Of a stretch of 64,000 nucleotides of DNA, positions 17,224 to 30,486 are shown piece after piece. The notes under the pieces were generated by a model that made no database searches, was not told the DNA's origin, and worked only from the letters and a program-made list of their open reading frames with translations. The DNA comes from an uncultured Deferribacteres bacterium (GTDB lineage Bacteria > Zhuqueibacterota > JdFR-76 > DREG01): contig CAJVYQ010000022.1 in NCBI GenBank assembly GCA_913009825.1, positions 3,870-67,869 on the forward strand. Direction: 5' to 3'. Each line of letters starts with the position of its first letter. The stretch's first letter is position 1. The translations under genes and the position numbers were made by a program.

Positions 17224-19587
17224 TCAGGATTCCATTTTCTTGCGTAATTCCATGGTTTTTTCGTAAAATTCCACCAAGGTTAATTTTCTGAGAAAGCATA
17301 AACCATGAGTAGCGCGCAGCCGCGGATGAGTATTTTCGTTGAAGAAATCCCGTCCAACGCAGGTTTTGACGGCCAGAAATTGATCCGACTGGATCTTCTG
17401 CGCCAGCCGGGAAAACGGCCCGTCATATTCATAACTGGGAAAGGAAGCGTCTTTTTGTGAGCCGAAACAGTTGCGAAAAGATTCATTCAAAATCGAAGTG
17501 GAATTGAGGGAAACCGGGACAAAAATATTCGCTTCGGACGGGTCAAACCGGTACCAGACATTCCGGTATCCCCACACTTCAAGATCGCTCCGTCCGCTCT
17601 CTTTTTCATAAATTTTCAACGCTTCGCTGATTGTCTGCATCACTTTGTAATGGGTGTCCGGGCCGCTGCCTTCCGGATCGAAAGCGAGGGTGACGATATC
17701 GGGGCGAATTTTTTCCAACTGTTGCAAAACCGGTTTCACATCCCGCTCAATTTCCGGTTCTTCCGTAAAAATTTCACCTTTGTAAAAACCAAGCCGCAAA
17801 TGATTTACCGAACTGGAGTTGAAACCAAAATGGTTCCACAGCAAATCCGCTTCCCATTCACGGGTCATTCCTTTTAACTGCTGGATATAGGTTAAATCTT
17901 TTTTACCCGGATACTGAGTGCGAAAATAGTTGATCAACTCGTTGATGCGGTCTTTCAGGTGGTGGATGCTGTCTTCTTCGAACAGAAAGATGATATTCCT
18001 CAGTGTTCTGCGAGCAAGCGCTTCATTTTTCATGGTGCGGCTGCGAGCGGCAATACCATCCAAATATTGGTAAACATCCCGGTTACGGCCGTTGTCATTC
18101 AATGGATTGAAATAATCTTCTTCCATCATTTGCCGGAAATCGGGTGTGTCGATGTGGCTGAGAAGAATTTCCAGTAAATTCAGAATGTATTTATTCGTGA
18201 CGGCATTGAAACCGCTGGTCATATAGGTGAAATAGTGTTTGTTCAATGGAGTTCTGACCAGGTGAAAAATGAACGGTAAATAGCCCAACATGATATCGTC
18301 ATGGTGCGGCGCGGTATGCATAAAAATTTTATTTTCGATATTGGCCAGCCCCGCTTCAATTTTTTCTTTCAGGCTGTAGACCACTTTGGCAAGTAGTTGC
18401 TGATAATTTTCTCCGGTTTTTTGCAACAGGGCTTTGGCGAAGCGGTTGCCGTTAAAATCGGCACGATTCAAACGGTTCAACCGTTTCCGTTTCTGAAGAG
18501 CAAGATCGATAATCACCTTCTCCGTCTGTTCATCTGTAACAGTTCCTGTGCTCTTGAAATCTTCGTAATTTCTCTCTACCAATCCCTTTGCAGCGCCTTT
18601 GGTTAAATAGAACCGGGCGTTTTCCAGATCCTGCAAAGTGGATGCAGGATACAAATTATCCTTTTCGCTCTGGATTGCCCGGGCCACAATTTTTGCTTTG
18701 GCCTCGCCGGCCGCTATGATGATGGCCACAGCATCCTTGTTGTAAGTAATAGTAGACAGGCCGATGCTGATAACCAATCGGTTTTTTGCCACTTCGATGC
18801 CGCCCAGGTCCGATGCGGCCGCAGCCTGAGTTTCATAGTTGGTTCGGGTTAAGCGGGTGGTGGAATAAAGGTCGGAACCACGAACATTGAAAGCGACGTG
18901 GCCGTCCGGGCCGATACCGCCCAGAAAAAATCCGATGCCGCCCATTGCACGTATCCCGGTCTCGTATACGGTACAGAACCGATCCACCGCTTCAATCACC
19001 GCCTTTTGTCTGCGTTCCCGGCTGTTCGCCGGATGTGTGGTTCGCAGACTCAAATCAACTTTGCCTTCCGGGAAAATGTCCGTTAGTCTCATTCCAACCG
19101 GTGTACCCAAATTCCAACAATTGATGAGCAGCGCTTTGTCCGGATCCAGGCCAAAACCATCGATGTAAAATTTATTTACGTAATAGTAAAAGCTGTTGTG
19201 CTGCTGCGGATTGATAGGATAAAATTCATCGATCTGCACAAAATGGAAACTTTTCATGTCCGGTTTGATTTCCGGATCGACTCCGTTTTCCTGCAGATCT
19301 TTTTTGATTTCCGGTAAACTCCACTTGTTCAGATAATAAGTAACCCACTTGATGAAATGTTCCGGTGTTTTTCCTGTAGGCAGAGAGATGACGCCGCCGG
19401 GATTGTTTTGTACCCATTCGATGAATCGCAGAGCTGTCAATTTACCCAACAGCGGGAAGTTTTCCACCTCGATGATTTTTATTTTTTCCGTTGGCAGGTA
19501 AACTATTTTTCGATTTGAGTGTTTTAAGGCGACCGCCTCCACCTGAGATTCTTCTTTGCCCTTTTTTGTTTTACTGCCGGGACTCAT
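17224..19587 (-). CDS. nagB: Glucosamine-6-phosphate deaminase (NagB domain) fused to an LmbE/PIG-L-like deacetylase domain
   Basis: N-terminal half has NagB motifs (GGIGPDGHVAFN); C-terminal half has an LmbE-like HHDD motif (APHHDDIMLGY). 787 aa. Confidence 0.75.
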   Translation of the reverse strand: MSPGSKTKKGKEESQVEAVALKHSNRKIVYLPTEKIKIIEVENFPLLGKLTALRFIEWVQNNPGGVISLPTGKTPEHFIKWVTYYLNKWSLPEIKKDLQENGVDPEIKPDMKSFHFVQIDEFYPINPQQHNSFYYYVNKFYIDGFGLDPDKALLINCWNLGTPVGMRLTDIFPEGKVDLSLRTTHPANSRERRQKAVIEAVDRFCTVYETGIRAMGGIGFFLGGIGPDGHVAFNVRGSDLYSTTRLTRTNYETQAAAASDLGGIEVAKNRLVISIGLSTITYNKDAVAIIIAAGEAKAKIVARAIQSEKDNLYPASTLQDLENARFYLTKGAAKGLVERNYEDFKSTGTVTDEQTEKVIIDLALQKRKRLNRLNRADFNGNRFAKALLQKTGENYQQLLAKVVYSLKEKIEAGLANIENKIFMHTAPHHDDIMLGYLPFIFHLVRTPLNKHYFTYMTSGFNAVTNKYILNLLEILLSHIDTPDFRQMMEEDYFNPLNDNGRNRDVYQYLDGIAARSRTMKNEALARRTLRNIIFLFEEDSIHHLKDRINELINYFRTQYPGKKDLTYIQQLKGMTREWEADLLWNHFGFNSSSVNHLRLGFYKGEIFTEEPEIERDVKPVLQQLEKIRPDIVTLAFDPEGSGPDTHYKVMQTISEALKIYEKESGRSDLEVWGYRNVWYRFDPSEANIFVPVSLNSTSILNESFRNCFGSQKDASFPSYEYDGPFSRLAQKIQSDQFLAVKTCVGRDFFNENTHPRLRATHGLCFLRKLTLVEFYEKTMELRKKMES

Positions 19588-21602: not shown

Positions 21603-22493
21603 TCAACGTAAAAACAAAATAGCCACACCGGAAACGGTCAGAACCGTGCCGGAGATTGCCCGAAAGCTAAATCTCGTTCCGTGAATCTTCATTTCGAGGG
21701 GAATGATAAACACCGGCATGAGCGACATCAGTGTAGCGGCCACACCGGTATTTGTATGTTTAATGGCAACCATGGATAACCAAACTCCCAAAAACGGGCC
21801 GAAGAAAGTGCCGCCCAATAAAAACAGGACAGCCCGGCCTTTATCACGGAATAGTTTCACCGGATTTTGTATTTTTCCCATCAAAACCGCTGCCGGCCAG
21901 ATAAACAGCGTTGCCGCCGCCATGCGAATGACCGTAGCTAAAAGCGGATTGATCTCCATTTGCAAAGCTGACTTTGCAATGACCAATCCGATTGCCTGTC
22001 CCAGAGCGGCAAATAATGCGAAGACAACTCCCGGAATTGAAATAGTTTGCGCATGATTTTGATGGTCGGATTTCTTTTCTAACAGAACGAGAAAAACACC
22101 CGATATGGTTACCCCGATACCCGCGGCAGCTATAAAACTTACGCTCTCATGTAAAAATAAAAAGGCAATGATGGCCGCCATGGCGGGTGAGAGTGAAAAA
22201 ACCAGCAGCGCAAGGCGTGCGCCAAGATGAACAAAAGCTTCAAAAAGAAAACTATCTCCGGCCGCCAACCCGATAACCCCGCTTAAGGCCAGCATCCATA
22301 TCTGAAAACGGGTCGCGGTAAAATCGCCAAATAACAGCAGATAAGAACTGAATAACAGAATTAATGCCAGCGGGATGCGCAGCAGATTCACCTGAAATGA
22401 ACCAACCCGTTGCGAGGCGGCCGAAAAGAACATGGCTGTGAATGTCCAGGAAACGGAAGTTGTCAGTGCGGCGATTTCACCAAGGCAGGGCAT
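21603..22493 (-). CDS. EamA/DMT-superfamily transporter
   Basis: Ten hydrophobic segments in two EamA-like halves; 10 bp downstream of the Hsp70-like gene on the same strand. Confidence 0.7.
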   Translation of the reverse strand: MPCLGEIAALTTSVSWTFTAMFFSAASQRVGSFQVNLLRIPLALILLFSSYLLLFGDFTATRFQIWMLALSGVIGLAAGDSFLFEAFVHLGARLALLVFSLSPAMAAIIAFLFLHESVSFIAAAGIGVTISGVFLVLLEKKSDHQNHAQTISIPGVVFALFAALGQAIGLVIAKSALQMEINPLLATVIRMAAATLFIWPAAVLMGKIQNPVKLFRDKGRAVLFLLGGTFFGPFLGVWLSMVAIKHTNTGVAATLMSLMPVFIIPLEMKIHGTRFSFRAISGTVLTVSGVAILFLR

Positions 22494-22503
22494 TTGAAAT
22501 TTT

Positions 22504-24207
22504 TTATTCCAACTCGAACAATTTGTCTAATAGTTTTTCTTTTAGATTTTCTAAATCGTCCGGGTTATTTTTCCGCACGGCATTTTTTATCTTTGCAATT
22601 AACATTTCCAACCGGTCTTTGTCATCACCATCCTGCATTTCTGCCGTCAGCTTTTGTGCCTTATTGATCAGTGTAGTGATTGCGCTGTCGGAAGAGAGAC
22701 CCATGGACAGAATTTTATTCCTGGCTTCCTCTTTTTCGGTTTCCGAAAGTTTGATTTGTGACGTTTTAACGGTGATCTGTTCCTTTTTGCCGCTATCCTT
22801 ATGTGTGGCGGAAACATGAAGGATACCGTTTATATCCAGATCGAACCGGACAATTAGCTCCGCCGGTTTATCATCCAAAGACACGGGGATGTTTTCAAAA
22901 ACAAAAGAACCAAGCAAAATGTTTTTGGATGCTGTTTTATGTTCGCCCTGAAATACATCGATTTCCACCTTAGTTTGCAAAGGGTGCATCGTATAATAAA
23001 CTTCCGATTTAGTAACCGGAATAACGGTATTTTTGCGTAGAATGACGCTGTAACGATCCTCCCGAATATTGCCAAATTCCACTTCAACCACTTCGATGCC
23101 AAGAGAGTAAGGCGTAACATCTACAAGGATTGAGTCCACATTTTCCCCGGCAATGATGGCTGCCTGAATCGCTGCGCCGATGGCCACACATTCATCCGGG
23201 TTGATTTCCGAATGCAGTTCCTTCTCCATCATCTCTTTCACAACTTCTGCAACCAAAGGAATTCTGGTTGATCCGCCTACCATGAGCACTTTTTCAATCG
23301 CCTCCGGTTTCAATTCGGAATCATCCAACGCTGTTTTGATGGAATCAAGCGTGGAACGAACGAGGGGATCGATCATATCATTGAATGAATTGCGGGAAAA
23401 TTCCGTATTAATATGGAGAGATTTGTTTTTTCTTTTCGCGATAAATTCTTCCACAATTTGCGTAAAAGGCTGATCGGAAAGGCTGATTTTTGCTTCTTCG
23501 GCCGCTCTGTTAAGCCTGGCGAAAGATTTCATATCCCCGCTCAGATCGATGTTATGAGTTTGTTCGAAATCCCTGATCAGAAATTCAACAATTTTAGCGT
23601 CAAAATCGTCACCGCCCAGGTGGTTGTTGCCGTGGCTCGCCCGCACTTCAACAATACCCGAATTAATTTCAACAACCGAAACATCAAAAGTACCGCCGCC
23701 CAAATCATAAACCATAACAAGCTGATCTTCTTCTTTATTAAGACTGTGAGCAAGAGAAGCGGCTGTCGGTTCATTTATAATTCTTACAACTTCCAGGCCG
23801 GCAATTTCCCCGGCATCTTTAGTAGCCTGGCGTTGCGCATCGCTGAAATAGGCCGGAACGGTAATTACAGCTCTTTCAACGGACTCCTCTAAAAAATCTT
23901 CGGCAATTTTTTTCAACCGCCGCAGAATAATGGCAGATATTTCCTGAGGTTTGTATTCTTTGTCGCCCAAAAGGATTGTCTCTGCACTGCCCATCTTTCT
24001 TTTAACCGATTTGACTGTCTTTTCCGGAAAAAGAGTGTACTGGTTTTTTGCCGCCTGTCCGACTAACAGTTCTCCGTCGGCAGAAAGGCCTACCACAGAA
24101 GGCACCAAATGTTGGTCGCCATCCGGAATTATTTGCGGAATACCATCCACCACAACTGCCGCTAATGAATTTGTTGTTCCCAAATCGATGCCGATTATTT
24201 TGCTCAT
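22504..24207 (-). CDS. Hsp70-family ATPase (DnaK paralog, 567 aa, short C-terminal lid)
   Basis: Intact actin-fold motifs: phosphate-1 IGIDLGTTNS, connect-1 VITVPAYFSDAQRQATKDAG, phosphate-2 DLGGGTFDVSVV, adenosine VLMVGGSTRIPLV. Start overlaps the upstream gene by 4 bp. Confidence 0.85.
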   Translation of the reverse strand: MSKIIGIDLGTTNSLAAVVVDGIPQIIPDGDQHLVPSVVGLSADGELLVGQAAKNQYTLFPEKTVKSVKRKMGSAETILLGDKEYKPQEISAIILRRLKKIAEDFLEESVERAVITVPAYFSDAQRQATKDAGEIAGLEVVRIINEPTAASLAHSLNKEEDQLVMVYDLGGGTFDVSVVEINSGIVEVRASHGNNHLGGDDFDAKIVEFLIRDFEQTHNIDLSGDMKSFARLNRAAEEAKISLSDQPFTQIVEEFIAKRKNKSLHINTEFSRNSFNDMIDPLVRSTLDSIKTALDDSELKPEAIEKVLMVGGSTRIPLVAEVVKEMMEKELHSEINPDECVAIGAAIQAAIIAGENVDSILVDVTPYSLGIEVVEVEFGNIREDRYSVILRKNTVIPVTKSEVYYTMHPLQTKVEIDVFQGEHKTASKNILLGSFVFENIPVSLDDKPAELIVRFDLDINGILHVSATHKDSGKKEQITVKTSQIKLSETEKEEARNKILSMGLSSDSAITTLINKAQKLTAEMQDGDDKDRLEMLIAKIKNAVRKNNPDDLENLKEKLLDKLFELE

Positions 24208-25439
24208 AAATTTTTCTCCTGTTGTTTTACGACAATTACCTCTGCATATCTAATTATTTGTTGCCCCTTTTTATACCCTTTCAGGTGCTCTCTGCTGATA
24301 TAGCCTGCGGGAATATCCTGATTGTTCTCAACCCCAACCGCAATATGCTGTTGCGGATCAAATTTTCCCCCAACACTGAGAATCGGTCGGACCCCTTCGT
24401 CTTGCAGCACTTTTAATAAGCGCCGGTAGATCAGTTCAAGCCCTTCCCGCCAGGTTTGAACTGCTTCCGGCAACGCTTCATTCCCGGCATTCCGGGACAA
24501 AAATATTTTTTGCCAGAATTTTTTCTCTTTCTGTGTCGAATCGACCGACGAGGATGAAAGTTCTTGTCCGGGAATGGTTGCCAGCGCTTCGGCAAAACCA
24601 TCCAAAACGGGGAGAAGGTTTTTAATCAATTGCAAGTTTGCCCCCGATTTCAACTCGTTTTTAAGATCCAGCAATTCTTTTACCATTTTTTCCGTACGCT
24701 GAATCCGCCGCTGTAAATCCGGAAAAATTTGGTTGTCCGTCTCCTGTTTTGTTTCAAACAGCATGTTGATTTTGTAAATTTCACGTCCGAATTTCTTCAG
24801 GTTTTTTGCCAGGCCGGAAAGTTCCGTTTGAAAAACCGACAAATCCTGCCCAGATAAAAAAGCGCCGACTCGAATAAGTTCGTCTAACCGCTTATCAAAC
24901 AGCTCCCGGGATTTGTTTGTTATGTTTTCTATTTTATCTTCGTACTGTTGGAACAGGGTCGCGCTGATTTCGGGATGATCCCCGGCAATAAGAAGCATTT
25001 CTTTTTTCAAAGAATCGAACCGATCCCGAAGATAACCGATCGCTGCAGTTGAGGAAAGTAGTGTATCCAGCTTGCGCATTTCCCGGAATACAGTGCCGGA
25101 CGGAGAAGATTTTACTGTCCGGGCTATGTATCGAATCATAGTCAGGGTATTATTTTTTACGATCCGTTTTTTATGGAGGAAATGAAAATACCTGCGGAAT
25201 TTGTATGAAATCGTATTCCTGTGTCGGACGGAAAGCTGCAAGGTTCGTTGATAAAAGAAGTCGTCGAAAAGTTCAACCACTCCGTCATTTTTGAAATCAT
25301 AAATATCCCCGGCAGTAAAAAATGCAGTAAACCGTTCCAATTCGTGTTGATATTCGCAACAGGTTCTCTGAGATATGCCGGTTTTTTGTAATTTTTTCAG
25401 AAATAAAGCAACAGTTAATTGTATTTCCACAACGTACAA
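24204..25439 (-). CDS. GrpE-domain protein with a ~120-aa N-terminal extension and central coiled-coil region
   Basis: C-terminus LPVLDGFAEAL...GGKFDPQQHIAVGVENNQDIPAGYISREHLKGYKKGQQIIRYAEVIV fits the GrpE dimerisation helix and beta-domain. N-terminal ~100 aa loosely resembles a tyrosine-recombinase core-binding (SAM-like) domain (weak, by eye). Confidence 0.65.
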   Translation of the reverse strand: MYVVEIQLTVALFLKKLQKTGISQRTCCEYQHELERFTAFFTAGDIYDFKNDGVVELFDDFFYQRTLQLSVRHRNTISYKFRRYFHFLHKKRIVKNNTLTMIRYIARTVKSSPSGTVFREMRKLDTLLSSTAAIGYLRDRFDSLKKEMLLIAGDHPEISATLFQQYEDKIENITNKSRELFDKRLDELIRVGAFLSGQDLSVFQTELSGLAKNLKKFGREIYKINMLFETKQETDNQIFPDLQRRIQRTEKMVKELLDLKNELKSGANLQLIKNLLPVLDGFAEALATIPGQELSSSSVDSTQKEKKFWQKIFLSRNAGNEALPEAVQTWREGLELIYRRLLKVLQDEGVRPILSVGGKFDPQQHIAVGVENNQDIPAGYISREHLKGYKKGQQIIRYAEVIVVKQQEKNL

Positions 25440-25793
25440 CTACTCTGGTTTTATTGTTGAATAGTCTTCACTGAAATCTGTTTTATATAAATCTGAAAAC
25501 AGATATTCGACGGCGATTAAAAAATCCGTAAAAGTAACTTCCGTAAAATAAGAATCCGGATTGTCAGCCTCCGGTGGCAAAATAAAACTCCCTGCCGGTT
25601 CTTTCAGTATGGAAAAATCGGTTTTAACACGAGCCGGTGTGGATTTAATCTGTTCATAAGCATGCCTGATCGTCTTGAATTTTTCCGGTTCCTTTTCGGG
25701 CGGATATTTTCTAACCAGACGAAAATAAGCTTTCTTGATCTCCGGCGGTGAGGCATTTTGAGAAATATTCAGTGTTTTATACGGATCCATCAA
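25440..25793 (-). CDS. J-domain-like protein with non-canonical PPE in place of HPD
   Basis: DPYKTLNISQNASPPEIKKAYFRLVRKYPPEKEPEKFKTIRHAYEQI aligns to J-domain helices II-III, but the HPD tripeptide position reads PPE. 117 aa; abuts the flanking genes. Confidence 0.65.
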   Translation of the reverse strand: MMDPYKTLNISQNASPPEIKKAYFRLVRKYPPEKEPEKFKTIRHAYEQIKSTPARVKTDFSILKEPAGSFILPPEADNPDSYFTEVTFTDFLIAVEYLFSDLYKTDFSEDYSTIKPE

Positions 25794-28045
25794 TTATCCC
25801 CGGAAAATTGTAATTCTTTGAATAAATCCAACTCTTTACGCATTTTTTTGTGCAGATCAAATACATCTTCAAATCGTTCCGACAGACCGGCTTTTTCAGC
25901 CAGGAATTCCGCGGCCAACTTATGTTCTCTTGATTTTTTCGTCTTGTTCTGCAGCATGTAAACGAAACTCAGATCGATATGAGCATAGATATGGTTTGGT
26001 TCCAGTTTAATACATTTTTTGAAATATTTTTCCGCTTCCGGCAGGTCATCGGCTAAGTATTTTTTGCCAATTTTATAATACCATTCTGCATTTTGGGGAT
26101 CGATTGCAAGCGCTTTTTTAAAATAGCTTTTCGCTTTTCGCCTGGATTTTTCGAAAAGCAACTTTCCCAGTTCAATTAACAGCAGAGGGTCGTTTTTTGC
26201 CAATTTCTCCGCTTTGCTTAAAAAGAAATTCGCTTCCCCGGAATGTTCAAATTCCAGGTACGCCTGACCTGCCTCCATATAAACAACAGGATTATCCGGG
26301 TCGGTTTGGACATAGCTCATGAATAGCGATCGCACGGCTTTCAGGTCATCATATTCCTCTAAATAAAGTTGTGCCAATTCAAAATATCCGCCGAAATCGG
26401 CAGGACTTAATTCGATCTGTTGTTTGTATAATTGAACCGCTTTTTCGATATTGTCTTCTTCAGTCCACTGATTATAAGCCAGTTCATTAATCACCGAAGC
26501 AAGCTGCTTTTTTGCACCAACATTGCCCGGATCAATTTCCAGCACTTTGTTCAGCGTTTCAATTGCTTTGGTCTCATTCCATTCCATCTCCTGAACAAAA
26601 GCCAAATCGAGCATTGCCTGAATATTTTCCGGGTCTTTCAGAAGTAAGTTTTCTAATAACCGGCGCGCGCTGCTCCATTTTTCCAAATCTATGAAAGCTT
26701 CCGCCAATTGAATCTGAATTTGTGAATCATCCGGCTTTAAAGCCGCTAATTTTTGCAATACTTTTAACGAACGGCCGGAATTATTACTATTCTCGTAATT
26801 TTCAATTAGATGCCGGTAGGAAACAGTGAGGAATTCTATCCTTGCTTTGTCATCCGGATGTTTGCGAAGTTCATTTTCATGGAACTGACAAACTTTATTC
26901 CAGTAAATATTGGCTCGTTTCGCGTCCGCCAATTTGTCATAAGCGATAGCTACGTTATGAAACGCATTCAAATCTTCTTTGGCACAAGACAACTGCCACA
27001 TATTAAGCGCTTCCTCCCAGTGATTATTTAGCGCCAGATCGTTTGCCTGCAGAAAACAAACCCGCTCAAGATTTGACAGCGTTGCCTGATGATCCGGTTG
27101 CAAAGATAAAATTGCTCTGAACCATTCTTTGCTCTTTTCCCAATCTTTTTTTCGGGCATACTCCAATCCCTTTCGCCACAAAAGAATCATCAGATTACGG
27201 GAGTAGCGTTCAATAGTAAAACCGTTTTTAAACGCCCGCAGCCAATATTTGTCACACAGATCCCGCTCATTTCTTTTCAGATGAAGCAAACCGGTAAAAT
27301 AATAAAGCAGAGAAGTCAGACGTAATTTGTCATCCCCTTTTATCCTCCGGTAACTCATATCGAACCATGTTTTTGATTCTTCCGTTGAACCCTTTTTAAG
27401 GAATAGCAAACCGGTAAAAAATTGTCCGGTTTTTGTTTGGCGCAGGTTTTCCGGGAATATTTCAAAAGGATGCTGCGCGGTTCCGGCTTTCAATTTATGC
27501 AAAACGGAAAGAATCCCGCTTAAAAAAGGTTCAGCACCCGTTTCGGATAATTCAGATAACTTTTGCGTGTGACCGGATTTAAGATAGGCCATGGCAAGAT
27601 GAAAACCATATCTTTTATTTTCCGGTTCCAGTTCGACGGCCTTGCGATAGGCGTTGCGGGCTTTTTTGTCATTGCCCAAATGTTTATAAGCCAAACCGAG
27701 ATGAAAATAAGTAATGGCCTGATTTTCCTGCAAAGAAATCGCCTGGGAAAGTTCTGCAACAATCAAATGATATTTTTGGGCGACATCCCGGTCACGATAA
27801 TAACCAATTCCGAGGCGAAAATGAGCTTCGGCAAACAATGGCGCAAGTTCGACCGGTCTTTGGTGTGTTGGAATTCTGTTCCATTCACCAACAGCCTTCC
27901 GGAATTTCCCTGCTGCAAAATATTTTTTCCCGGCTGTAAAAAGATGGGAATATTTTCCTTTTAATTGAGCAGCGGTGAAATGATTTCCCGTTCCGCCCGG
28001 TTTATCCGTTTGCGCTTGTTCTTTTTTCTTTTTTTTTCTGCTCAT
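25790..28045 (-). CDS. Large TPR-repeat protein (751 aa) with a lysine-rich N-terminus
   Basis: Many TPR-like 34-residue repeats (recurring W-LG-Y/A-P patterns, e.g. AITYFHLGLAYKHLGNDKKARNAYRKAVELEP). First gene of the four-gene minus-strand operon. Confidence 0.8.
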   Translation of the reverse strand: MSRKKKKKEQAQTDKPGGTGNHFTAAQLKGKYSHLFTAGKKYFAAGKFRKAVGEWNRIPTHQRPVELAPLFAEAHFRLGIGYYRDRDVAQKYHLIVAELSQAISLQENQAITYFHLGLAYKHLGNDKKARNAYRKAVELEPENKRYGFHLAMAYLKSGHTQKLSELSETGAEPFLSGILSVLHKLKAGTAQHPFEIFPENLRQTKTGQFFTGLLFLKKGSTEESKTWFDMSYRRIKGDDKLRLTSLLYYFTGLLHLKRNERDLCDKYWLRAFKNGFTIERYSRNLMILLWRKGLEYARKKDWEKSKEWFRAILSLQPDHQATLSNLERVCFLQANDLALNNHWEEALNMWQLSCAKEDLNAFHNVAIAYDKLADAKRANIYWNKVCQFHENELRKHPDDKARIEFLTVSYRHLIENYENSNNSGRSLKVLQKLAALKPDDSQIQIQLAEAFIDLEKWSSARRLLENLLLKDPENIQAMLDLAFVQEMEWNETKAIETLNKVLEIDPGNVGAKKQLASVINELAYNQWTEEDNIEKAVQLYKQQIELSPADFGGYFELAQLYLEEYDDLKAVRSLFMSYVQTDPDNPVVYMEAGQAYLEFEHSGEANFFLSKAEKLAKNDPLLLIELGKLLFEKSRRKAKSYFKKALAIDPQNAEWYYKIGKKYLADDLPEAEKYFKKCIKLEPNHIYAHIDLSFVYMLQNKTKKSREHKLAAEFLAEKAGLSERFEDVFDLHKKMRKELDLFKELQFSGDN

Positions 28046-29166: not shown

Positions 29167-30486
29167 ATGGTTAAAATGAACTGTAAATTTCGTTTTTTAG
29201 CACTACTTACCTTTTTGCTGTTTTTGCCGGTCACAAATTTGATTGGCGCCGAATCGAACGTGCCAAATTACGCAGATGAAGACCGGGAGCCGGATCATCT
29301 GCAGGAAAAAGCGGCAAAGATATTTCTGGATGTGCCCGGTTATTACCAGGATTATATTAAAACGGAAATCCCATTCGTCAATTATGTGCGGGACAGAAAA
29401 CTGGCACAAGTCCATATCATGATGACATCACAACGAACCGGCAGCGGCGGCAATGAATACACGTTTACATTCACCGGATTGAAAAACTTCGCCGCCCTCA
29501 GCGACACAATGAAATATGTTTCGCGTCAGATGGATACACGGGATATGACACGGCAAGGCATGGTCAAAATACTTAAATTAGGTTTGATGCCTTACATTGC
29601 CAAAACACCCCAGGCAAAATATCTCCACATTTCTTACAGAGTAAAATCGAACCCGATGGATGTGATTGATAAATGGAATTTCTGGGTGTTCAATATTAAC
29701 ACCGATGGTAATCTTGACCTGGAGGAGAGTAAGAAAAATTACCGGCTTGGCGGTTCGCTTTCCGCCAACCGTGTTACTCCCAATTGGAAGATGAGTTTTT
29801 CTCTGAACACCCGGTACAATGAAACCAATATCGAGACATCCGAAGGGTCTATTTCAAGTATTACAAGATCGCCCGGTTTCAGGGGGATCATTGTAAAAAG
29901 TTTGGGAGAGCATTGGTCCGTTGGCGGGTACGCCTCGGCCAGGTCATCGGTTTATTCAAACTTGAATTATTCTTACGGATTTGCGCCGGCGCTGGAGTTT
30001 AATGTGTTTCCCTATTCCATTTCAACCCGAAAGGAATTTCGCTTTCTCTATCGACTTGGCTATAACAATCTTCATTATAATGAAGAGACTATTTTTGATA
30101 AAATGAATGAAGCATTATTCAGCGAAAGTTTGTCTTCTACTCTGGAGATCAAAGAGAAATGGGGTTCGACCTCTACCACGTTGAGAGGTTCCCATTTTTT
30201 TCATGATTTCAGCAAAAACAAATTAGAAATGTCCGGCAATTTAAACATCCGGCTATTCGAAGGAATTTCAATCGATATAAGCGGTAGTATTTCCCGGGTT
30301 CACGACCAGTTGTCATTACCCAAAAAAGGCGCGACGTTGGAAGAAGTTCTGTTGCGCCGGAAACAATTGGCTTCCGAATGGGGAGTATCGACAAGAATCG
30401 GCTTGCGCTACACATTCGGTTCAATTTACAGCAATGTGGTAAATCCGCGTTTCGGTTCCGGCGGCAGGCATAGAAGATACTATTGA
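29167..30486 (+). CDS. Hypothetical exported protein, possible outer-membrane beta-barrel
   Basis: Signal peptide; alternating hydrophobic beta-strand patterns; C-terminal aromatic residues. No known catalytic motif. Confidence 0.55.
   Translation: MVKMNCKFRFLALLTFLLFLPVTNLIGAESNVPNYADEDREPDHLQEKAAKIFLDVPGYYQDYIKTEIPFVNYVRDRKLAQVHIMMTSQRTGSGGNEYTFTFTGLKNFAALSDTMKYVSRQMDTRDMTRQGMVKILKLGLMPYIAKTPQAKYLHISYRVKSNPMDVIDKWNFWVFNINTDGNLDLEESKKNYRLGGSLSANRVTPNWKMSFSLNTRYNETNIETSEGSISSITRSPGFRGIIVKSLGEHWSVGGYASARSSVYSNLNYSYGFAPALEFNVFPYSISTRKEFRFLYRLGYNNLHYNEETIFDKMNEALFSESLSSTLEIKEKWGSTSTTLRGSHFFHDFSKNKLEMSGNLNIRLFEGISIDISGSISRVHDQLSLPKKGATLEEVLLRRKQLASEWGVSTRIGLRYTFGSIYSNVVNPRFGSGGRHRRYY

Follow-up and report, generated by a model that had tools for sequence, protein, structure and literature searches.

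The 64,000-nucleotide stretch analysed here (the window), from contig CAJVYQ010000022.1 of a marine metagenomic bacterium, encodes on its minus strand a 116-amino-acid J-domain protein, hereafter the J-protein, with Pro-Pro-Glu at the position of the His-Pro-Asp (HPD) tripeptide that is usually taken as the signature of a working J-domain. Our results confirm that this is a real J-domain, with Pro30-Pro31-Glu32 exactly on His-Pro-Asp, and suggest that the altered loop defines, and has been selected for in, a widespread subfamily of bacterial J-domains, here called xPE because most members have Pro, Ser or Thr followed by Pro-Glu. We propose, with a probability of roughly 0.6 for this reading as a whole, that the J-protein is a co-chaperone of a self-contained, four-part Hsp70 system, in which it would probably fire its own Hsp70 while remaining insulated from the housekeeping chaperones. 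In the literature, HPD is found in 99% of J-domains and HPE is the only tolerated deviation, while it "remains enigmatic" whether other triads arose by accident or by positive selection (PMC13580251, PMC13254874); HPE itself occurs in about 1% of J-domains (PMC10410713).

The J-protein contains a J-domain with Pro-Pro-Glu in the HPD position

The J-protein gene has the following features:

25440..25790, minus strand: J-protein gene, 116 amino acids (list of open reading frames; identical to P0001; Pfam DnaJ)
25611..25790, minus strand: J-domain, residues 1-60, four helices (AlphaFold2 model and Foldseek)
25695..25703, minus strand: codons of Pro30-Pro31-Glu32 (ccg ccc gaa), at the His-Pro-Asp position (sequence and alignments)
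25443..25610, minus strand: C-terminal extension, residues 61-116 (alignments; AlphaFold2 predicted local distance difference test, pLDDT, of 66-90)
25461-25496, minus strand: motif S99-D-L-x-[KR]-x-D-F-x-x-D within the extension (orthologue conservation)

The Pfam DnaJ model (PF00226) matches residues 2-54 of the J-protein with E = 1.1e-11 and 45.1 bits, above the gathering cut-off of 27.8, and 34 solved J-domains match it with phmmer at E <= 0.01, all in one common register. In these alignments, whose templates include human DNAJA1, Tid1 and E. coli DnaJ (1XBL and 5NRO), KY-HPD-KNP...EKFK lies over KY-PPE-KEP...EKFK, and the loop between helices II and III is 3-6 residues shorter in the J-protein than in the aligned solved J-domains. 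An AlphaFold2 model built on 47 homologues has a mean pLDDT of 88.5, rising to 94-98 for residues 1-60, and places the helices of the J-domain at residues 3-6, 15-28, 35-48 and 51-60, with the antiparallel helix II/III hairpin and the four-helix fold that characterize J-domains. Foldseek superimposed this model on solved J-domains with root mean square deviations of 1.2-2.2 Å, the value for DnaK-bound DnaJ (5nro_B) being 1.6 Å over 61 columns. Helix II is basic, as in J-domains. Both the J-domain and its register had been called from the sequence in the original prediction, and Pfam, the phmmer alignments and the comparison of AlphaFold2 and Foldseek results agree with it. An HPD, which would have spoken for another register, is found nowhere in the 116 residues; the sole histidine is H43, in helix III, and the residue preceding the triad is Tyr, so that the loop is devoid of any histidine.

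Canonical J-domain proteins (classes A-C) have His-Pro-Asp where the J-protein has Pro-Pro-Glu. The J-protein instead fits the description of type IV, or pseudo-J-domain, proteins, in which the J-domain can still be recognised but HPD has undergone a non-conservative replacement (PMC13254874): its J-domain is clear, and it has Pro for His, a non-conservative change, and Glu for Asp, a conservative one. The label describes the sequence and is silent on activity.

The Pro-Pro-Glu loop is conserved across a large subfamily

All seven of the closest orthologues (48-84% identity) have PPE or TPE in the triad, i.e. [P/T]-P-E, and none has HPD. Across 47 aligned short-form homologues (30-84% identity), P3, L7, Y22, P31, E32, F38, R42, A44 and Y45 are the invariant columns, which puts the loop's Pro-Glu among the most constrained positions of the J-protein. 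Because the orthologues keep the replacement, Pro-Pro-Glu does not go back to a sequencing fault or to a peculiarity of one strain, which the original prediction had allowed for should they turn out to carry HPD. Indeed, we can exclude that the triad derives from a sequencing error, from the decay of a pseudogene or from a strain mutation in an HPD J-domain, given that an identical protein (P0001) occurs on four contigs from independent assemblies, that hundreds of relatives across phyla, and not just the orthologues at 48-84% identity, keep xPE, and that turning HPD into PPE takes three or more nucleotide substitutions as well as a deletion in the loop.

A profile search covering all 1.84 billion representative proteins retrieved 668 proteins at E <= 1e-10, and the first position of the triad lacks His in 146 of the best 150 relatives. 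Among 153 tallied relatives, which describe the xPE family and not J-domains at large, this position is occupied by Pro in 80, Ser in 38, Thr in 27, Asn, Arg, Gly or Asp in 7 and His in a single protein, whose loop differs; the third position is nearly always Glu, with Asp in four. The residue preceding the triad is His (67), Tyr (61) or Phe (21), as in ordinary J-domains. From these sequences, the subfamily pattern can be written as [P/S/T]-P-E-x-[D/E]-P-x-x-F-K-x-I-R-x-A-Y-E. The only matches with HPD were three proteins whose tandem J-domains sum to a high score; for instance, P0013 (679 amino acids), among the top profile matches only through its summed scores, contains six tandem J-domains, all with the canonical HPD. 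Public databases name the J-protein and its relatives just "DnaJ domain-containing protein", and an NCBIfam scan of the J-protein found no model specific to xPE J-proteins.

The J-protein gene lies in an operon with an Hsp70 and a GrpE-like gene

Three further genes of the window flank the J-protein gene in an operon:

25790..28045, minus strand: upstream gene, cytoplasmic tetratricopeptide repeat (TPR) protein, 751 amino acids (TPR Pfam families; TPR_2, 5.8e-30)
24204..25439, minus strand: GrpE-like nucleotide exchange factor, 411 amino acids (Pfam GrpE, 3.1e-23, 82.7 bits)
22504..24207, minus strand: Hsp70 paralogue, 567 amino acids (Pfam HSP70, 1e-158)

The order of transcription on the minus strand is TPR protein, J-protein, GrpE-like protein and Hsp70, and the stop and start codons of consecutive genes touch or overlap: the stop overlaps the start at both the TPR/J and the GrpE/Hsp70 junctions, in the latter case by 4 nt. 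The original prediction had referred to an adjacent Hsp70, and there is one in the same operon, but it is not the immediate neighbour of the J-protein gene, from which it is separated by the GrpE-like gene. The nearest relative, a Calditrichota metagenome-assembled genome, has the same four genes in the same order.

The GrpE domain occupies residues 232-405 of the GrpE-like protein, after an N-terminal extension of about 230 amino acids (24750-25439, minus strand, residues 1-230); public gene calls start this gene at a GTG at 25430. The extension was found only here and in the Calditrichota locus L005, the other cassette-type GrpE-like genes (see below) encoding 207-310 amino acids. It weakly resembles the N-terminal SAM-like (core-binding) domain of XerC/XerD (TIGR02224, 8.7e-5, residues 13-140; PF02899, 0.026), and a sequence search of PDB with it gave no match.

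The TPR protein contains an HPD at residues 396-398 (26852-26860, minus strand), in a context, ELRKHPDDKARIEFLTVSYRHL, that mimics a helix II-loop-helix III arrangement. We rejected it as a hidden J-domain: the J-family hidden Markov model gave only 2.6 bits, at another site, and HPD is present at this turn in three of the seven orthologues. We judge it to be an ordinary, non-conserved "xPD" turn of the TPR.

The J-domain, TPR, GrpE and Hsp70 genes are linked in many phyla

We scanned one genome per species, for 185,579 species, with two peptide patterns taken from the J-domain alone, which are blind to the neighbouring genes, and the open reading frames of the resulting loci were then searched with the proteins of the window. 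The scan yielded 80 loci, and in 45 of them an Hsp70 gene adjoins the J gene. Seven of these, from Calditrichota, three Anaerolineae, Spirochaetia, Bacillota and Chthonomonadaceae, are of a cassette type, and all seven have the order of the window, with TPR, short J (118-129 amino acids), GrpE-like and Hsp70 genes. The other 38, from Lachnospiraceae and other Clostridia, Nostocales cyanobacteria, Planctomycetota, Chthonomonadales and Muribaculaceae, are of a fusion type, in which the Hsp70 gene is followed by a gene for a fusion of an xPE J-domain with TPRs, of 405-509 amino acids in nearly all cases. Clustering of the neighbouring open reading frames revealed a third conserved gene directly upstream of Hsp70 in 33 of the fusion-type loci. 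It encodes a divergent GrpE, since the five products tested all pass the Pfam GrpE model, with 29.6-59.4 bits (cut-off 25.8), and 40 of the 45 Hsp70-linked loci thus have their own GrpE-type exchange factor. The same clustering found no further conserved gene in the neighbourhoods, including any nuclease or other effector. In all, conserved adjacency and two kinds of gene fusion tie the xPE J-domain, TPR, GrpE and Hsp70 together, and these parts recur in at least seven phyla, either as a cassette or in the layout GrpE-like, Hsp70, J(xPE)-TPR fusion.

Several individual loci show other arrangements. P0058 (536 amino acids) carries an xPE J-domain, its C-terminal extension and GrpE on one chain, an arrangement that is new to us as a described system. 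The J(xPE)-TPR fusions P0068 and P0064 end in a SEC-C zinc motif (PF02810, 3.6e-10 and 7.8e-10), the motif with which SecA ends, and this may hint at a role linked to the ribosome or the translocon. Likewise, an Acidobacteriota metagenome-assembled genome (L051, 5745-10716) encodes an 853-amino-acid PPE J-domain protein beside an 802-amino-acid Hsp70, and the 5' part of this Hsp70 gene is overlapped, in a different frame, by a GrpE-like open reading frame, which may represent a GrpE-Hsp70 fusion or a frameshift.

The partner Hsp70s keep catalytic residues and differ from DnaK in the linker

The Hsp70 of the window shows 41% identity to E. coli DnaK and 36% to HscC, and its best solved relative is the DnaK of Geobacillus (2e-139). 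We checked individual residues, in DnaK numbering, in 45 cognate Hsp70 sequences, that of the window included. D8, K70, P143, E171, T173, D194, T199, D201 and D393 are invariant; R151, N170 and R167 are kept in 44 of the 45 sequences, and Y145 in 35. These positions comprise the catalytic residues and the relay through which a J-domain sets off hydrolysis, and the cognate Hsp70s therefore look catalytically and allosterically competent, to judge from them. In the DnaK-DnaJ complex, R167 pairs with Asp35 of the DnaJ triad, and His33 contacts L391/L392 of DnaK, passing the signal on (PMC13012618).

The systematic differences between the cognate Hsp70s and DnaK sit in, and just after, the interdomain linker, which reads as follows:

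DnaK: VLLLD (V389-L-L-L392-D), then PL (L397)
Cassette-type Hsp70s: [A/S/M]-[I/V]-L-V-D, then P-[Y/H]
Fusion-type Hsp70s: x-I-[M/L/I]-T-D, then P-[Y/F]
HscC: V-I-L-T-D, then P-Y

The Hsp70 of the window has SILVD...PY against VLLLD...PL in DnaK. L392 is replaced by Val in eight of eight cassette-type sequences and by Thr in 32 of 37 fusion-type sequences, Thr being also the residue in HscC, and L397 is replaced by Tyr, Phe, His or Trp in all cognate Hsp70s; the DnaK proteins of Geobacillus and M. tuberculosis retain LLD...PL. The loss of the histidine on the J side coincides, suggestively, with a change in the linker residue that the histidine would contact.

HscC-type Hsp70s are characterized by a length of 550-580 amino acids, a deletion of DnaK residues ~76-101, an insertion of 4-8 residues in loop L1,2 and a shortened helical lid (PMC8215388). 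The Hsp70 of the window shows all of these, with 567 amino acids, deletion of DnaK 76-99, eight additional residues in loop L1,2 of the β subdomain of the substrate-binding domain (four in HscC itself) and a short lid, and it shares with HscC the absence of a disordered C-terminal tail; the deletion in lobe I is, however, common in non-proteobacterial DnaKs too. It departs from HscC in its subdomain IIB loop (DnaK ~285-295), which is of full length, whereas E. coli HscC lacks seven residues there, and in having a GrpE gene in its operon. Three other candidate traits were dropped. An Asn in place of Asp481 of E. coli DnaK, considered as a compensatory change, is shared by the DnaKs of Geobacillus and M. 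tuberculosis; the four residues deleted at DnaK 209-212, which include the J-contact D211, are absent from Gram-positive DnaK as well; and the conserved C-terminal LFELE, considered as an EEVD-like tail for TPR binding, aligns with the last helix of the DnaK lid (KLMEIA).

The C-terminal extension carries a conserved motif

Beyond the J-domain, the J-protein has an acidic C-terminus without any hydrophobic segment. Within the extension, S99, D100, D105, F106 and D109 are invariant in the seven closest orthologues, and the consensus SDLxRxDFxxD holds across the 47 homologues, with D109 nearly invariant. The J-TPR fusion proteins lack the extension, their matches to the family profile stopping near residue 60, whereas it is kept in the J-GrpE fusion P0058.

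Gene starts and surrounding genes

The open reading frame of the J-protein (25440-25793, minus strand; stop at 25440-25442) contains two possible starts, a TTG at 25793, given in the list of open reading frames, and an ATG at 25790. The latter shares one base with the TGA of the upstream TPR gene (TGATG), is preceded by a Shine-Dalgarno-like GGGGA at ~7 nt and is the start in public gene calls, where the 116-amino-acid product, P0001, is 100% identical to the J-protein; it is the likely start of the gene.

The flanking genes are ordinary chromosomal genes, encoding an EamA transporter, an alanine dehydrogenase, a metallo-β-lactamase fold protein and YchF. The EamA-family transporter gene (21603-22493, minus strand) has the same orientation as the Hsp70 gene, begins 10 bp past its stop and may share a transcript with the cassette; its position there is not conserved elsewhere, the Hsp70 gene being followed, for example, by a UPF0182 gene in loci L001 and L005. 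At 1e-5, Pfam gave no match for two long open reading frames near the cassette (29167-30486, plus strand, 439 amino acids; 17224-19587, minus strand, 787 amino acids). The window contains no CIRCE heat-shock operator, even with three mismatches allowed, and promoter-like and terminator-like sites are no commoner in it than in shuffled sequence.

A proposed mechanism and its alternatives

In the mechanism that we propose, the J-domain would dock at the canonical site of its cognate Hsp70, where Glu32 would take the place of Asp35 of DnaJ and pair with the equivalent of Arg167. The short x-Pro-Glu loop would contact the co-changed interdomain linker and so lead to ATP hydrolysis without a histidine, and the changes on both the J and the Hsp70 sides would insulate the pair from the housekeeping DnaK and DnaJ, as for DjlC and HscC. 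The TPR protein would pick the client or the location. Because the C-terminal extension is absent from J-TPR fusions and kept in the J-GrpE fusion, it could hold the free J-protein on the separate TPR protein, in place of the covalent link of the J-TPR fusions. Finally, the GrpE encoded in the operon would reset the cycle; the presence of a dedicated exchange factor in 40 of the 45 loci points to a system that turns over ATP rather than merely binding a partner. We give even odds to the broader claim that this is a second complete Hsp70 system, present in many phyla, whose J-domain activates Hsp70 without His through the xPE loop and an altered linker.

Several points weigh against this proposal. 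In DnaJ, stimulation is lost with the substitution H33Q (PMC13254874), H33A binds but does not activate in simulations (PMC13012618), and the contact made by the imidazole is not reproducible by Pro, Ser or Thr. The residue of helix II that touches E217 of DnaK, Lys26 in DnaJ, is Phe in the J-protein, although the Glu is kept, and the docking geometry may consequently differ from that of DnaJ. The co-variation in the linker was inherited within a few clades and does not amount to 45 independent events. The search profile was made from xPE sequences, so that its ranking leans towards xPE loops. Lastly, the apparent sisterhood with the E. coli proteins DjlB and DjlC, discussed below, rests on loop length and motif, and the scores against the family profile are nearly equal for DjlB (51.5 bits) and DnaJ (50.1 bits), which does not discriminate between them.

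The main alternative is a J-like adaptor that binds the J site of the cognate Hsp70 without triggering hydrolysis, which might recruit or park ATP-state Hsp70 on the TPR scaffold or tune another activator, leaving hydrolysis to be triggered by the substrate alone. The missing His in 146 of the best 150 relatives, the Phe in place of Lys26 and the finding that substitutions of His33 in DnaJ end stimulation and preserve binding (PMC13254874, PMC13012618) are all consistent with it, and there is a eukaryotic precedent in Pam16, whose J-like domain is an essential regulator (PMC13254874, PMC10939069). Binding of Hsp70 without stimulation, after the manner of such eukaryotic regulators, was also what the original prediction had put forward; as stated there, it is not supported, and five observations oppose it. 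Nothing else in the J-protein is as conserved as the loop, which is invariant and not degenerate, unlike the triad of Pam16, which is not preserved; the acidic third residue is retained, together with its partner Arg167 in 44 of the 45 cognate Hsp70s; DjlC, with HPE in an identical short loop, stimulates HscC (PMC8215388); a dedicated GrpE, present in 40 of the 45 loci, makes sense only for a cycling Hsp70 and argues for a fast, J-driven cycle; and the cognate Hsp70s keep the catalytic and relay residues that were checked. Moreover, no module contains an HPD J-domain that could be regulated, the HPD of the TPR protein being a non-conserved turn. We thus favour the adaptor less and consider it rather unlikely.

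A further alternative is a decoy, in which the xPE J-domain would bind the main DnaK, block DnaJ and so damp general chaperone activity. Competition with functional J-domains has been raised as a possible role of pseudo-J-domain proteins in a 2026 review (PMC13254874), and the J-protein retains a basic helix II, but the J gene strictly adjoins a private Hsp70 and GrpE in 45 loci of many phyla, fusions of J with TPR and with GrpE exist, and translational coupling in the operon points to the neighbouring Hsp70, and not DnaK, as the partner; a decoy is hence very improbable. We attach a similarly small probability to a phage-defence or conflict module that would use the Hsp70-type ATPase as a sensor or switch, with the J-domain in its regulation. 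Such a module could be reconciled with the patchy distribution across phyla, with the Hsp70-like nucleotide-binding and substrate-binding domain units of CoCoNuT restriction systems (PMC11090510) and with the match of the TPR protein to the PADLOC candidate model PDC-M71B (1e-12). This match reflects, however, generic repeat similarity; the J-protein and the Hsp70 have no match in PADLOC-DB 2.0, and the GrpE-like protein shows a marginal match to DruC (0.0048) that does not place it in a defence system. Furthermore, tblastn against 72,556 plasmids and 50,697 phages found no relatives, the genes around the cassette are of the housekeeping kind, no nuclease or effector gene is conserved in the neighbourhoods, and the ATPase residues are intact, unlike in the degenerate Hsp70s of CoCoNuT systems.

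Significance of the xPE family

The largest census of J-domains left sequences without HPD out of its main dataset and, among these, reports the HPE variant alone (PMC10410713), and our searches of the full-text literature found no account of [P/S/T]-P-E J-domains or of the cassette, which Barriot et al. 2020 (J Mol Biol 432:3771) may mention. Judged on its sequences, the xPE family clearly exemplifies selection for a triad other than HPD, because it comprises hundreds of clusters from many phyla, with an invariant Pro-Glu and with a partner Hsp70 and an exchange factor next door. The locus makes it possible to test, with four small soluble proteins, whether the histidine is required as such or only for DnaK-type linkers. 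If activation does occur without His, it would represent a natural, evolutionarily stable alternative for the allosteric coupling of J-domains to Hsp70. Should the pair be active and insulated from DnaK and DnaJ, it would provide a natural orthogonal chaperone circuit, or ready-made pair, and would add a GrpE-using version to the HscC-type branch of bacterial Hsp70s, of which little is understood. A non-stimulating J-protein, in turn, would be the first bacterial counterpart of the eukaryotic J-like regulators in the literature that we searched.

Comparison with known systems

The canonical DnaJ/DnaK/GrpE system encodes the same three activities together and has the same J fold. The J-protein differs from DnaJ in the change from HPD to PPE, in its shorter loop and in the replacement of Lys26 by Phe, and it has no G/F region, zinc finger or client-binding domain, the operon having a separate TPR protein instead. 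Its Hsp70 shares with DnaK the subdomain IIB loop and the checked catalytic and allosteric residues, and differs from it in the eight-residue insertion in L1,2, an altered linker, a short lid and the lack of a C-terminal tail.

Among eukaryotic type IV proteins, Pam16/Tim16 and DNAJB13 likewise combine a recognisable J-domain with a non-conservative change of the triad. Pam16, however, partners a true HPD J-protein, Pam18, whereas the module of the window has no HPD J-domain; and its triad is not preserved, being DKE in the yeast protein and DKS in the human one, whereas the xPE triad is invariant across phyla and keeps the acidic residue.

AtcJ of Shewanella (atcJABC) is also a very short class C J-protein with a short conserved C-terminal extension, which binds an operon-encoded partner and brings Hsp70 to it (PMC10939069; bioRxiv 10.64898/2026.09.07.749886); this partner is AtcC, bound through a short C-terminal motif (bioRxiv 10.64898/2026.09.07.749886). 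AtcJ has been shown to interact with the housekeeping DnaK, and these papers describe no private Hsp70 partner for it. The C-terminal motifs also differ, PX7W in AtcJ against SDLxKxDFxxD in the J-protein, which scores 22.1 bits against the NCBIfam AtcJ model NF050028, well under its cut-off of 150.

E. coli DjlB and DjlC share more with the J-protein. DjlB is the sole E. coli J-protein that matches the J open reading frame by tblastn (5e-6). Over the loop region both read SFHPETDPQGFKQLRQAYE, i.e. FHPETDPQGFKxLRQAYE against YPPEKEPEKFKTIRHAYE in the window, with the same short loop and motif: the J-protein carries their short-loop motif x-P-E-[TK]-[DE]-P-x-x-F-K-x-[IL]-R-x-A-Y-E, Glu is the third residue of the triad in all three proteins, and both fit the xPE family profile free of gaps, whereas DnaJ needs an insertion of six residues. 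Both retain the His (HPE), which the J-protein does not have. They are also much larger, being membrane tail-anchored proteins (PMC8215388) of 475-483 amino acids as compared with the soluble, 116-amino-acid J-protein. DjlC and HscC make up a pair that is exclusive and orthogonal (PMC8215388), and DjlC alone among J-proteins stimulates HscC (PMC8215388, PMC13254874). The E. coli hscC locus contains no GrpE gene, unlike the operon of the window, and HscC is thought to be independent of GrpE (PMC8215388). DjlB and DjlC, too, are encoded beside a dedicated Hsp70 paralogue and TPR-superfamily repeat proteins, the Sel1-repeat proteins YbeQ and YbeT; in E. coli K-12 (L086; NC_000913.3, 674000-686000) the genes form the triplets ybeQ (Sel1)-ybeR (DUF1266)-djlB and ybeT (Sel1)-ybeU (DUF1266)-djlC. 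Without filing the J-protein as a member of their group, we find that it resembles DjlB and DjlC in its J-domain and in its genomic logic, and they appear to be its closest characterised relatives.

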